Sequence record: NC_054924.1
DNA length: 64,000 bases
Source: Escherichia phage vB_EcoM_Lutter
Direction: 5' to 3' (one strand)
Shown here: one piece after another, positions 10,465 through 52,995 of the stretch
Layout of the letters: every line of letters starts with the position of its first letter
Numbering within the stretch: the first letter of the stretch is position 1
The notes under the pieces: model-generated
Told to the model about the DNA's origin: nothing
Seen by the model: the letters and a program-made list of their open reading frames with translations, nothing else
The model's database searches: none
Position numbers and translations under genes: made by a program

Positions 10465-11211
10465 TTATCCTCGGATAAGTTTAAAAATTGAACAATTTAG
10501 CGGATATCCTCTTTTCAGTTTAAGTTTATCAATAAAAGACAAGTTTTGATACCGCTCTACACCTTGAATAATTTTATCACACATATCATATTGCATTTCT
10601 GCTTCTGACAACTTTTTCACAGTTTTCCAATCCGAGCCTTTAAGAAGAACGTTCAATTTAACAACTTCAGCGCCTTCTGCTATACGAGAACCATCAATAC
10701 GAGCTTTAAGTGCTATAATCGTTAGCTTAACGTCAGAAGTTTGTTTTGATTTAGAAAGCTGAGAAATGTGTTCAATTCGGTTTTCACGTTTTTTCTGTAT
10801 AGCTTTAATTTGATTATAGGTCTTTTTGATTTTAGCCCATTTCTTTTCATCTAAATTTAGTTTATGAACTTTTTTCGCAGATGAACGACCAATTCGCAAA
10901 GCAAATAAATCACGCTTTTCAATCAACTCTTCTAAAGTATAATCAGAACGAAATGTATTATACTTTTTCTTTACTGCAATAACATTCCCTTTAATGTATC
11001 CAACGTTATTATCAAAACGTTCTAATGATAATTTCTCTCCTTCAATACGATTATCAAAAGGTTCTCCCGAGTAAGCACAAACTTTTTGATCTAAAATGTT
11101 CTTAATGTAATTGAAGTCTAAGTTAAAATCTTTAGAACGTCTTTTTGCAGATGCCTGAGTATGCTCTAAGCGACGTTTAATTTTACGAATTTGATTATTA
11201 GACAGTTTCAT
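10465..11211 (-). CDS. srd: Srd-like protein
   Basis: 248-aa basic ORF between dda and modA; assigned by size and synteny. Confidence 0.5.
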   Translation of the reverse strand: MKLSNNQIRKIKRRLEHTQASAKRRSKDFNLDFNYIKNILDQKVCAYSGEPFDNRIEGEKLSLERFDNNVGYIKGNVIAVKKKYNTFRSDYTLEELIEKRDLFALRIGRSSAKKVHKLNLDEKKWAKIKKTYNQIKAIQKKRENRIEHISQLSKSKQTSDVKLTIIALKARIDGSRIAEGAEVVKLNVLLKGSDWKTVKKLSEAEMQYDMCDKIIQGVERYQNLSFIDKLKLKRGYPLNCSIFKLIRG

Positions 11212-11289
11212 ATTTTTCTCACATCTTACGGACGGTTGACTACTTATACTATAACATTTTTACTTTAACTTGTAAACAACTTTATGTAA

Positions 11290-11317
11290 AAATGCTTTAA
11301 AACTTTCGTGGTATAAT
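11290..11317 (+). promoter_or_regulatory. Plus-strand MotA box (TGCTTTA) with extended -10 (TGgTATAAT), antisense orientation
   Basis: aaTGCTTTA, 13 nt, TATAAT preceded by TGG, all on the plus strand; faces into minus-strand modA. Confidence 0.35.
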
Positions 11318-11334
11318 GAATCTAAGTCCTTCCA

Positions 11335-11937
11335 TTATAGATTAAATCCTTCAAAATCAAGAGTATAGATAGTGTATGTTGAATACTTTTTGTACTCATA
11401 TCTATCTGCAATTCTAAATACACTTCCAGCTGGTATCATTACTTCTTGTTCATCTGAAACTAATTCCATATTACGATAACGATGACTATCCGGAAACTTA
11501 AAGTTTGGATTGTATTCTTTACAGCGTAGAGCTTTTATAGCATACTCCTGGAAATTGAATACCATAGGAGCTTTGAATTCAAAAATAACTTGTGTGTTAT
11601 ACTCTAAACCGGAAGCAAAATGTAGAGCTATATTTTTATCATATGAAGCTGATACTACTTTATCAAATGTAATAATATCAATTCCTTGATTTAACACCTG
11701 CTTAGTCTCAGCTGGAACACCTCTCCAAAGAGGTTTATCGTTTGGAACCAAACGAGATTTGATTATTTCATTTAACCAAGTATGGTCATCTGGCTTATTA
11801 GTAATACAATGAATTAAAAGTTCAATTTCAGATAAATTAAACCCTTCAGAAAGTAATTCTTCACGAATAGAAGCACGCACCGATGCATCCATTGATTTTA
11901 TTTTAAAATCTTTTAGTTGCATTACTGAGTATTTCAT
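11335..11937 (-). CDS. modA: ADP-ribosyltransferase ModA
   Basis: 200-aa ORF with R / S-x-S / E-x-E ART motifs (LWRGV, SASYD, EQEVMIP). Confidence 0.8.
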   Translation of the reverse strand: MKYSVMQLKDFKIKSMDASVRASIREELLSEGFNLSEIELLIHCITNKPDDHTWLNEIIKSRLVPNDKPLWRGVPAETKQVLNQGIDIITFDKVVSASYDKNIALHFASGLEYNTQVIFEFKAPMVFNFQEYAIKALRCKEYNPNFKFPDSHRYRNMELVSDEQEVMIPAGSVFRIADRYEYKKYSTYTIYTLDFEGFNL

Positions 11938-12557
11938 TCAACTACCTCAATATCATAAACTTTAAATGTTCCAAATGAATCGTGTAATTTTTCTTTTGAA
12001 ATAGAAGTTATTCTATACTTTCCAATTGGAATCATCCATTCTTGTTCACGCACAATCATCATTAAGTTATCAGTACGCTCTGAATCTAGCCCATCAGTAT
12101 CTTCATACGTGTACTTAAACTCAGTATTAGGAGAAGAAAGTATAATATCGCTGATATGGTCAGAATAATTAAAAGCTTTATCAGTTTTTAAGCGAAATAT
12201 TATTTCAGTGAAATACTCAACATAAGAAAAACCACATGCTGTGTGCAAACTAGTAGTAAATGAATCTACCCTATTCGTTGAAAACACTTCTCCAACTTGT
12301 AAATCTTTAATGAGTTCTTTTGTCGATTTTGATATACCACGATATAACTGATAAGGTGATTTAGTTAAATGCTTTTTAACGATTTTATTCAACTGCCGAT
12401 GAAGAGCTTCATTCTTTTTAGCTTCCATACATTGCCAAAGAATTGACTGCTCAAAGTCAGTAAATTTTTCACAGACCTTTTTATACATATCATATTGAAA
12501 ATCAACGCTTTCAGCTTTTATAGATAACTGTTCAACATCTGCAAGATTAATAATCAT
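11934..12557 (-). CDS. modB: ADP-ribosyltransferase ModB
   Basis: 207-aa paralog of ModA with the same ART motifs (LYRGI, STN, EQEWMIP). Confidence 0.8.
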   Translation of the reverse strand: MIINLADVEQLSIKAESVDFQYDMYKKVCEKFTDFEQSILWQCMEAKKNEALHRQLNKIVKKHLTKSPYQLYRGISKSTKELIKDLQVGEVFSTNRVDSFTTSLHTACGFSYVEYFTEIIFRLKTDKAFNYSDHISDIILSSPNTEFKYTYEDTDGLDSERTDNLMMIVREQEWMIPIGKYRITSISKEKLHDSFGTFKVYDIEVVE

Positions 12558-18327: not shown

Positions 18328-18492
18328 TTACTCTTCTTTTTCTTTAGATTCCTCTTTCTTCTTTTTAGGAATCTGTTCAGGACCTTTATTTACTACAGCA
18401 CCTGACGTTGTTCCAGTAGAGATATTTTCAGGATTACCACCTGAATCTCCAGCGACCATATCTTCTTTAATAAATTCTTTATATGTTTTCAT
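18328..18492 (-). CDS. hypothetical small protein (61.1 position, 54 aa)
   Basis: ORF below cutoff (MKTYKEFIKEDMVAGDSGG...), fills the gap upstream of 61. Confidence 0.45.
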   Translation of the reverse strand: MKTYKEFIKEDMVAGDSGGNPENISTGTTSGAVVNKGPEQIPKKKKEESKEKEE

Positions 18493-18493
18493 A

Positions 18494-18850
18494 TTAACCT
18501 CTATTCATAAAAGCATTAAAAATTTGGTCATCAATAGATGGTGCAGTAATATTTTCTGCATCATTTAGCAAATCATTAATTTCATCAGATAGCATAACAC
18601 ATGTACCTTTATTTCCTGTAATTGTTACTGCACAATTACGAACGTTTTCTTTATCAAATTTTAGGTTAATATTTTCGTAGTGAAAATCCTTTAATGCCGA
18701 ATATATCTTTAAAATGAAATTGTCTTTTACTACAATAAACCCAACCTCACTATTAAAACGCGGTTCATGGAAACTGTAATAAACCTTTTCATCTATAAAA
18801 TCGTATGAAATTTTTTCCATTTTTAAATATGAAAATTCAGAACTATACAT
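18494..18850 (-). CDS. single-domain paralog of the 61.2-position protein
   Basis: 118-aa ORF; last 14 codons plus the stop/start junction nearly identical at DNA level to the end of the 18852..19484 gene. Confidence 0.55.
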   Translation of the reverse strand: MYSSEFSYLKMEKISYDFIDEKVYYSFHEPRFNSEVGFIVVKDNFILKIYSALKDFHYENINLKFDKENVRNCAVTITGNKGTCVMLSDEINDLLNDAENITAPSIDDQIFNAFMNRG

Positions 18851-18851
18851 A

Positions 18852-19484
18852 TTAACCTTTATTCATAAAAGCATTAAAAATTTGATCGTCAATAGAAACT
18901 TTTACTTTAGGCTGTTCTTCAAACGGTAATTCATATCCACATATTACAATTTTGTGATCGATACCAAAATACACAGAAGCAATATTATTAATATTATTTT
19001 CAGTGAAATCTAAATCAACATCAATATCTTTTTGACTAACGCTCAAAGGATAATTAATACGAATAATTCGATTATCTTTAACAAAGATTCCACCGACATA
19101 CTCTGTGCTGCGTTTAAAGTTTACACGTTTCCTAAATGAAAAATATTCAGGTTCTTTATGGGCTCGACTCATAGGGCTTAAAGTGTATTCCGAATATGAA
19201 ATATCAAATCCTACACCTTCAATATGAGCCAAAGTATCATGATTAAACCAATTATAATCGTATGCCAAATCCATTAAATTGTAATATGTGAAAGGCACCG
19301 GATTAACATCATATGTTGTACCTTTAAAATCTGCCCAGGCAACGATTTCGTTATCTTTAACAATTACAAAAATTGTGCCAATAAGATATCTACGGTTATT
19401 TTCATCAGGTGTTATATTATAACATTGTGCATCAGGAAATTTACCGTATTTAAACGGTGGATTTTTGTGCATATAATAAATCAT
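18852..19484 (-). CDS. two-domain protein (61.2 position)
   Basis: 210-aa ORF with two internal repeats of a VKDN-containing domain. Confidence 0.55.
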   Translation of the reverse strand: MIYYMHKNPPFKYGKFPDAQCYNITPDENNRRYLIGTIFVIVKDNEIVAWADFKGTTYDVNPVPFTYYNLMDLAYDYNWFNHDTLAHIEGVGFDISYSEYTLSPMSRAHKEPEYFSFRKRVNFKRSTEYVGGIFVKDNRIIRINYPLSVSQKDIDVDLDFTENNINNIASVYFGIDHKIVICGYELPFEEQPKVKVSIDDQIFNAFMNKG

Positions 19485-45627: not shown

Positions 45628-46097
45628 TTTAAACTCTTTCTAAGCTGCTTCTTAAATGAAGCTATTAACTGTGTTTTGGTGTCAGATTCATTATATTCAA
45701 ATCCTCTTTGAAGCATCTCGGCCATCATTTCCTCTTTTCCTAAACGAGAAAATTCCTTTGATTTATCTCCAACAAAGTTAGGGTGAATATTATTTTGGGT
45801 GTAATCGGATTTTAAATAAGTAAGTAAATTTTCTAACCATTCAAGATAATCAACACCTTGTCCCTTTAAGCCAGAACGATTAAATTTATGTTTCATTTGA
45901 CCTTCTGCGGCATTGCAGAGATTACAAAGCAATCCACGTACCTTTCCTGCTTTTGGTCCATTTAATTCATGGTCATGGTCGAGGTGATTAGCTTGAACAT
46001 CAGGATTTAGTTCTCGTTGGCAAATTAAGCATTTACCGTTTTGTGCATCATAAAATTTCTGTTTTTCTTCTTTATATAATTTGCCAGTCAATAACAT
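45624..46097 (-). CDS. 49: endonuclease VII (Holliday junction resolvase)
   Basis: 157-aa ORF with zinc-binding and H-N-H-like core (CLICQRE...HLDHDHE...CNLCN). Confidence 0.9.
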   Translation of the reverse strand: MLLTGKLYKEEKQKFYDAQNGKCLICQRELNPDVQANHLDHDHELNGPKAGKVRGLLCNLCNAAEGQMKHKFNRSGLKGQGVDYLEWLENLLTYLKSDYTQNNIHPNFVGDKSKEFSRLGKEEMMAEMLQRGFEYNESDTKTQLIASFKKQLRKSLK

Positions 46098-52412: not shown

Positions 52413-52467
52413 AATAATCTCAATTAAAAGGGCTTAGAACCATTATACCATCCTTGGTATAAAGCGG

Positions 52468-52995
52468 TTATGCGAGTACCGTCTTTAACCGTTCTTCAAA
52501 CTTCCGAAGAGTATTCTGGCGTTCAGCTCTTTGCTTTTTGTAAGTTTCAATACGCTCTGAAATGAGAGTGTATCGTTCATTTACTGATTCTTTCATAAAA
52601 TCAGGAATTTCACGAGAAGATTTAATCTCGTCAAATTTATCAATAACAGCTTGCTCTTCAGCAATTAAGTTATCATACATCAAAATATCTTTCTTGATGA
52701 ACTCAATATCTTCTTGAGTTACACGAGATAATTTAGATGCTTTATCCTTTTTGTACTGTTCATTAGTATCACGAGACCAGTGTAATGTACGATTTTTATT
52801 CGTATTTTTGTAAATTTCTACAATACCGATCTCATCAATAATAACGATCCAATTCCAACGAGATTTGTAAATTTGCCCTCCATCAACCGTGATTTCACCT
52901 CCGATTGAGATGTCATTAAAGAACTTGCTTTGTGCTTCAGATTTAAATTTACCATCATTGTAGTTTACCAAGTTGAAAATATCTTTAGCATTCAT
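52468..52995 (-). CDS. hypothetical protein
   Basis: Start placed at ATG 52995 (MNAKDIFN) with GGAGGAA SD; upstream part of the track ORF is promoter sequence. Confidence 0.5.
   Translation of the reverse strand: MNAKDIFNLVNYNDGKFKSEAQSKFFNDISIGGEITVDGGQIYKSRWNWIVIIDEIGIVEIYKNTNKNRTLHWSRDTNEQYKKDKASKLSRVTQEDIEFIKKDILMYDNLIAEEQAVIDKFDEIKSSREIPDFMKESVNERYTLISERIETYKKQRAERQNTLRKFEERLKTVLA

Follow-up and report, generated by a model that had tools for sequence, protein, structure and literature searches.

A predicted MotA-dependent middle promoter without a gene of its own faces modA in Escherichia phage vB_EcoM_Lutter and mod genes in many T4-like relatives

Results

Promoter elements in the spacer between srd and modA

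The window analysed in this study is a 64,000-nucleotide stretch of Escherichia phage vB_EcoM_Lutter (NC_054924.1). The phage is a Tequatrovirus, and the order of its genes dda, dda.1, srd, modA, and modB is the same as in T4. The 2.2-kb stretch around the candidate promoter described here has 95-99% identity to about 500 Tequatrovirus records. The five genes and all nearby ORFs lie on the minus strand, whereas the candidate reads along the plus strand, so the antisense orientation given in a preliminary description of the locus is correct. The candidate is intergenic and occupies the 123-bp spacer from the modA stop codon (11335-11337) to the srd start (11211). Its parts and its neighbours are listed in Table 1.

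Table 1. Features of the candidate promoter and the surrounding genes, in window coordinates
Feature	Position	Strand	Basis or remark
MotA box aaaTGCTTTA	11290-11299	+	10/10 match to the consensus (a/t)(a/t)(a/t)TGCTTtA
12-bp spacer	11300-11311	+	last three bases TGg (TG at 11309-11310) form the extended -10
Sigma-70 -10 hexamer TATAAT	11312-11317	+	sequence reading
Predicted transcription start, A	11324 (= T4 11897)	+	7 nt past the -10; analogy with mapped starts
Initially transcribed sequence AAGTCCTTCCATTA, conserved	11324-11337	+	overlaps the modA stop codon (11335-11337) from +12
modA, first gene covered antisense by the predicted transcript	11335-11937	-	annotation and ORFs
modB, second gene covered if the transcript goes on	11934-12557	-	annotation and ORFs
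srd, behind the candidate, transcription heading away from it	10465-11211	-	annotation and ORFs
srd early promoter	11248-11277	-	GTTTACA (-35, 11277-11271), 17 bp, TGT and TATAGT (-10, 11253-11248), predicted start 11241

The consensus of the MotA box is centred near -30 (PMC2988021), and the canonical spacing between box and -10 is 12 +/- 1 bp (Hinton 2010, PMC2988021). The MotA box and the extended -10 were found with the sequence and coordinates first described for them, but the spacing of 13 nt reported at that time was a miscount. The gap between TGCTTTA and TATAAT is 12 bp, and that between TGCTTTA and TG is 9 bp. The only sequence at 17-bp spacing that could serve as a -35 element is AAAATG; since it fits TTGACA at just one of six positions, the candidate is regarded as having no -35 element, and a sigma-70 promoter scan did not report a -35/-10 pair for it. 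Hence the candidate combines the features of a MotA/AsiA middle promoter, namely the box, a -10 with TGn at 12 bp, and the lack of a -35 element. The genes motA and asiA are located beyond the 64-kb window, and both are present in T4. We placed the predicted start by the mapped starts of PuvsY (T4 115371) and PnrdC.7 (T4 53325), which have the same TATAATg..tctA context. The modA stop codon is 11 nt away from this start.

The candidate stands back-to-back with the srd early promoter, and the MotA box is at roughly -52 to -58 relative to the latter. Records of related phages annotate the srd promoter as a predicted early promoter, and a NAD-capped RNA specific to srd has been described. No intrinsic terminator was found on the sense strand from modA to srd. 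The 5' UTR of srd contains a hairpin on the minus strand (window 11222-11234, CGUC-CGUAA-GAUG), in which T4 has a G.U pair. The corresponding hairpin is CGTC...GACG in Mosigvirus and Mexia-type phages and GATG/CATC (T4-like) in Dhakavirus. In Mexia it lies within the spacer of the antisense promoter, and the fold alone is weak (-2 kcal/mol).

Motif strength and genome-wide rank

The 58 published T4 middle promoters were extracted via their mapped starts (Hinton 2010, Table 1, PMC2988021), and 49 well-aligned members were used for a two-block matrix of box and -10, with the candidate left out. At 23.3 bits, the candidate ranks first on both strands of the window, where the 21 matches that follow it all belong to the minus strand. 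In 200 random sequences of 64 kb, no score as high as 23 bits occurred (best 22.8). Two exact matches to TGCTTTA-N11-13-TATAAT are present in the window, compared with 0.09 expected from shuffles. The matrix scan of both strands of the whole T4 genome likewise places the candidate at rank 1. An unlisted plus-strand site with its start at 76000 scores 22.7 bits, and PuvsY scores 22.0 bits. After the candidate and the 76000 site, the next plus-strand site of T4 is found at rank 39 with 15.3 bits.

The candidate is missing from the 58 middle promoters in Table 1 of Hinton 2010, where the nearest entries are Pdda.1 (11138) and P56/69 (16813). The site could perhaps have been assayed earlier and have proved inactive, which would account for the omission. 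In our literature search, no specific report of a MotA promoter in antisense orientation or of an antisense RNA to modA came up.

Several other matches on the minus strand of the window are described here for completeness. Those at 52435-52469 and 45683-45718 are homologues of the mapped PnrdC.7 and PnrdD promoters. Together with the candidate and PuvsY, they have a common start context, TATAATg(g/a)(t/a)tct(a/g)A, a possible sign that some middle promoters form a sub-family whose initially transcribed sequence is conserved. Two near-identical P61-like motifs, TAATGCTTTT-N12-TAATAT, lie 358 bp apart at 18484-18518 and 18842-18876. P61 is single in both the T4 scan and the Hinton list (start 19122), and the pair may represent a local duplication in vB_EcoM_Lutter.

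Kinship with known promoters

The closest relative of the candidate among the mapped promoters is PuvsY, the promoter of oriF with its start at T4 115371. The stretch TGGTATAATGAATCTAAGTCC, from -15 to +6, is identical in the two, and about 30 of 32 positions agree through +17. The initially transcribed sequence is identical or near-identical in PuvsY/oriF and in the orphan site at T4 76000, and T4 has three near-identical copies of the element, at 11897 (+), 76000 (+), and 115371 (-). The reads of uvsY fall from 11,917 to 165, i.e. 72-fold, in T4 motA-amber (PMC6024815); therefore a PuvsY-type promoter is strong and strictly MotA-dependent in vivo. PuvsY and the candidate both have a MotA box, a 12-13 bp spacer, and A+T-rich downstream DNA. 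They differ in that PuvsY drives uvsY in the usual minus-strand direction and is a proven origin, whereas the candidate points along the plus strand into modA and is followed by no ORF.

The 58 catalogued T4 middle promoters have the same architecture of box, spacer, and -10 as the candidate, and two of those with mapped starts, PnrdC.7 and PnrdD, also have the TATAATg(g/a)(t/a)tct context around the start. All catalogued promoters recovered by the matrix, however, belong to the minus strand and lie within or ahead of the genes that they express. P34i of oriG resembles the candidate in being of the middle type, with a non-coding transcript that runs against the gene it reads into (34), but P34i is on the usual minus strand inside late gene 34, and its similarity is confined to promoter consensus positions. 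Outside T4, the closest counterparts are bacterial systems of cis-antisense transcription or convergent interference, in which a gene carries at its 3' end a promoter that fires back into it and stands face-to-face or back-to-back with a sense promoter. Unlike these systems, the candidate would be timed by a phage activator, and its effect on the target is hypothetical. Antisense RNAs in T4 have precedents in the antisense RNA of gene 32, at which antisense transcription was reportedly described by Belin et al. in 1987, and in the antisense starts found by dRNA-seq. The T4 dRNA-seq preprint gives 150 phage start sites, 22 of which are antisense.

Conservation across T4-like phages

In close relatives the spacer is 98% identical, and the only substitution in its 12-bp stretch between box and -10 is G/A at 11308. 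As such identity makes close relatives uninformative, the srd loci of diverged phages were used. An antisense box with TATAAT between mod and srd is present in Mosigvirus, Dhakavirus, Karamvirus, Gelderlandvirus, and two groups of Klebsiella phages, and is absent from one Krischvirus. We then searched both strands of 51 srd loci (285 kb) from an IMG/VR set with a strict box and TATAAT pattern. The antisense strand gave 38 matches, all 38 at the position of the candidate and none elsewhere, while the 36 matches on the sense strand are at ordinary middle-promoter positions. A CGCTT variant of the box adds three Mosigvirus loci, so that the element is found in 41 of the 51 loci.

The -10 reads TATAAT in all 41 loci, an invariance by construction, as the hexamer was required by the search pattern. 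Among 34 distinct sequences, the GCTT core is invariant, and so are two bases downstream, the G next to the -10 and a T three positions further on; GCTT and TATAAT were demanded by the search, and neither of the other two bases was. Across genera, the flanks of the element have diverged beyond alignment. A ModA/ModB homologue lies 12-142 nt past the predicted start in 41 of the 41 loci with the element, counts that are not phylogenetically independent, and of the ten loci lacking the element, six have no mod homologue at this place.

The position of the element relative to the srd early promoter varies. In Tequatrovirus, Mosigvirus, and Dhakavirus, it is upstream of the early promoter in a back-to-back arrangement, with the box 2-17 bp behind the early -35. 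In Karamvirus and Gelderlandvirus, it follows the early promoter, within the 5' UTR of srd, and the antisense -10 faces the early -10 (TAGAAT) across 13 bp. The predicted starts therefore coincide, and occupancy of the two promoters would be mutually exclusive. The element is downstream of the early promoter in Mexia-type phages as well. The kv_tblp2 group has an inserted dmd-like ORF; here the element lies beside mod in a 68-nt spacer, 265 nt from srd. A box serving merely as an UP element of the srd early promoter is thus insufficient to explain these arrangements, given the downstream location in Karamvirus, Gelderlandvirus, and Mexia-type phages and the non-adjacent location in the kv_tblp2 type.

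Conservation in T4 and its relatives had been proposed as a check on the preliminary description, and the motif is indeed kept in T4 and across genera with a constant antisense orientation. That box, -10, and orientation are kept despite diverged flanks and two rearranged geometries argues for selection on promoter function.

Predicted transcript

The first plus-strand ORF past the predicted start is a 35-codon GTG ORF (11372-11479). It overlaps modA, and its conservation would therefore be uninterpretable. According to the ORF list, nothing on the plus strand downstream of the candidate is coding-like. The first 100 nt of the predicted transcript fold no better than shuffles (z -1.2), the transcript has no match to an Rfam family, and no conserved intrinsic terminator was found on the antisense strand within 1.6 kb in 17 loci. 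With no conserved terminator, no structure, and no Rfam match, a discrete small RNA is unsupported. Inside modA, two adjacent perfect hairpins are located at window 11719-11755, in the codons for ...SRLVPNDKPLWRG..., the catalytic region with LWRG. Read on the plus strand, they resemble weak terminators about 400 nt from the predicted start, and they are not conserved in other genera.

A predicted sibling promoter between T4 genes 3 and 2

The 76000 site lies outside the window, on the plus strand of T4 (AF158101, 75966-76000) between the late genes 3 and 2, and reads TAATGCTTTA-N13-TGGTATAATgggtctAAGTCCCTTCCATT. Like the candidate, this sibling is missing from the Hinton 2010 list, although it is at rank 2 in the T4 genome. 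It faces gene 2, and its antisense orientation is kept in Mosigvirus, Gelderlandvirus, Karamvirus, and Dhakavirus. A 9-bp inverted repeat (CTTCCATTC...GAATGGAAG) lies downstream of the sibling, and Mosigvirus NBG1 and Karamvirus EnC15 have complementary arms of other sequences at the same place.

Expression data for T4

Gene-level counts for T4 wild type and motA-amber at 5 min have been published by Patterson-West et al. 2018 (PMC6024815, Table S1). The libraries are stranded, the counting mode (strand-specific or pooled) is not stated, and the data represent a single time point and a global mutation. In this dataset, the reads of gene 2 are middle-like, i.e. MotA-dependent and DksA-insensitive, unlike those of the flanking late genes 3, 4, and 53. 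The densities in the dksA host are 147, 825, and 104 reads/kb for genes 3, 2, and 4 with T4 wild type, and 28, 52, and 13 reads/kb with T4 motA-amber, respectively. Upstream of gene 2, the minus strand has no predicted middle promoter (best 6.3 bits), and the only minus-strand late promoter around genes 2-4 is upstream of gene 4. The simplest reading is that the gene 2 signal comes from a MotA-dependent plus-strand RNA of about 0.9 kb made from the sibling, which was counted because the counting was unstranded. This pattern suggests that reads from both strands were combined in the published counts, which would then also bear on how other genes facing antisense promoters are interpreted. It also suggests, indirectly, that orphans such as the candidate and its sibling do fire, making kilobase-scale antisense RNA.

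At the candidate locus, the ratios of motA-amber to wild type at 5 min are 0.30 for dda, 0.23 for dda.1, 1.48 for srd (p about 9e-4), and 1.24 for modA.2. Many other early genes, goF and cef among them, are at about 2-fold. For modA and modB, the ratios of 0.88 and 1.11 are non-significant, and their counts show no rise in motA-amber at this time point. These flat counts mean either that the idea of mod being shut off is weakened or that sense and antisense reads were pooled. The modA/modB read ratio, used as a measure of an antisense component, gives an equivocal picture: it agrees with such a component in the wild-type host, points the other way in the dksA host, and favours neither in ppGpp0. 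The total coverage of modA is about 7% of the uvsY level, so the antisense RNA would be scarce or short if the counts are unstranded.

Discussion

T4 middle transcription is the textbook example of sigma appropriation, with promoters that have been listed for decades. At the level of sequence, the assignment of the candidate as one of them is strongly supported by its consensus strength, its kinship with PuvsY, and its conservation across genera, and we regard it as probably an active MotA/AsiA-dependent middle promoter. The best explanation for the locus as a whole, to which we give slightly less than an even chance, is a gene-less middle promoter of the MotA/AsiA sigma-appropriation type that acts in cis on mod. 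AsiA-remodelled sigma-70 RNA polymerase and MotA would bind the box at -30 and TGnTATAAT from about one minute after infection. Initiation at A 11324 would yield a plus-strand RNA that is not translated; after 11 nt it would reach modA and pass through this gene in antisense, in the direction of modB. Either convergent transcription or the sense/antisense overlap could then limit ADP-ribosyltransferase expression once the early period is over, and crowding of the abutting srd early promoter would be a side effect. We infer firing in vivo, the end point of the RNA, and its effect on mod or srd expression.

Cis interference with mod, or antisense control of it, is favoured as the selected function because the element tracks mod genes through rearrangements; we put it forward tentatively. 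The preliminary description had proposed that a transcript from here shuts off the ADP-ribosyltransferases at middle times. Its promoter identity is borne out by the first rank of the motif, the conserved orientation, and the likeness to PuvsY. The shut-off, on the other hand, is still a proposal, which the constant company of a mod gene supports and the modA and modB ratios in motA-amber speak against.

An oriF-type origin element would account for the same promoter differently, as its RNA would form an R-loop in easily melted downstream DNA and prime a clockwise leading strand or seed recombination-dependent replication, with the antisense orientation being incidental. oriF and oriG are known to consist of a middle promoter and a downstream unwinding element, with the RNA forming an R-loop primer (PMC3016281). 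From -15 to about +17 the candidate almost duplicates the promoter and first transcribed bases of oriF, there is neither an ORF to express nor a conserved terminator, and oriG itself is a middle promoter antisense to its host gene (34). The DNA from +1 to +100 of the candidate is in the least stable 3.5% of T4 100-bp windows and that of oriF in the least stable 9.6%, but this measure is not diagnostic, as oriG is at 29% and the 76000 sibling at 30%. Moreover, the usage of T4 origins is incompletely explained, and the toxicity of modA would probably have hampered cloning of the fragment in plasmid screens, which yielded only oriF and oriG (PMC3016281). Nascent-DNA arrays covering the whole genome nevertheless revealed five origins, none at 11.9 kb (PMC3016281), and oriA is already located at T4 16763, 4.9 kb away and in the minus direction (T4 record). 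An origin role does not predict the strict partnership with mod. It is also disfavoured by the pyrimidine-rich 5' end of the candidate RNA, for pyrimidine-rich RNA disfavours stable RNA:DNA hybrids. On balance we consider an origin element unlikely. A broader version, in which the candidate and the 76000 sibling are unrecognised R-loop primer promoters of the oriF type, the sole clockwise-firing ones, conserved across Tevenvirinae genera, is less likely still. The mapped origins near the two are oriA, near soc/56, and oriE, in gene 5. As the candidate and the sibling are each 3-5 kb 'left' of a mapped origin and point to it, they could feed origin peaks or launch the opposite fork. Identity of the candidate with oriA is ruled out by the position and direction of oriA, which is primed by the gene 56 transcript.

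Two further readings dispense with a function of the RNA. Occupancy by MotA/AsiA polymerase could act at the DNA level, occluding or crowding the srd early promoter and blocking read-through from modB-modA into srd-dda at middle times. The mutually exclusive -10 elements 13 bp apart in Karamvirus and Gelderlandvirus fit this idea, as does the box, which in Tequatrovirus, Mosigvirus, and Dhakavirus lies 2-17 bp behind the early -35, where an UP element would be. Published primers treat modB-modA as a discrete transcript despite the lack of a sense terminator between modA and srd, from which a barrier might be surmised. The rise of srd in motA-amber is in the expected direction but below the general rise of early genes in this mutant. 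The 68-nt spacer of the kv_tblp2 group leaves no room for an early promoter, with srd 265 nt away, and the sibling between genes 2 and 3 has no promoter partner on the sense strand; occlusion or a barrier at this site is therefore improbable in our judgement. The element could also be a promoter-like module without a regulatory role, either silent in glucosyl-HMC T4 DNA or a repeated gene-conversion cassette that serves as a recombination substrate. It is the best consensus match and yet stands outside the curated set of 58 experimentally identified middle promoters, modA read counts are low, and copying from site to site would fit the three near-identical copies in T4. Certain T4 sequences that resemble the consensus are in fact inactive in vivo (PMC2988021), but these have GATT boxes and the candidate has the canonical GCTT. 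The lack of any role is further at odds with the high activity of the twin promoter PuvsY, the matching MotA-dependent signal of the sibling over gene 2, and the maintenance of box, -10, and orientation across genera with diverged flanks and in two rearranged geometries, and we hold it to be very unlikely.

The best middle-promoter consensus match of the genome thus runs against all of its neighbouring genes and is missing from the Hinton 2010 catalogue. In every locus that has it, the gene ahead codes for an ADP-ribosyltransferase, a toxic product required in the early period alone. If active, the candidate would offer a mutable handle on how T4 ends early expression, a shut-off that modA deletion or MotA knock-down fail to explain. 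It would equally be a handle on whether T4 has R-loop origin elements beyond oriF and oriG.
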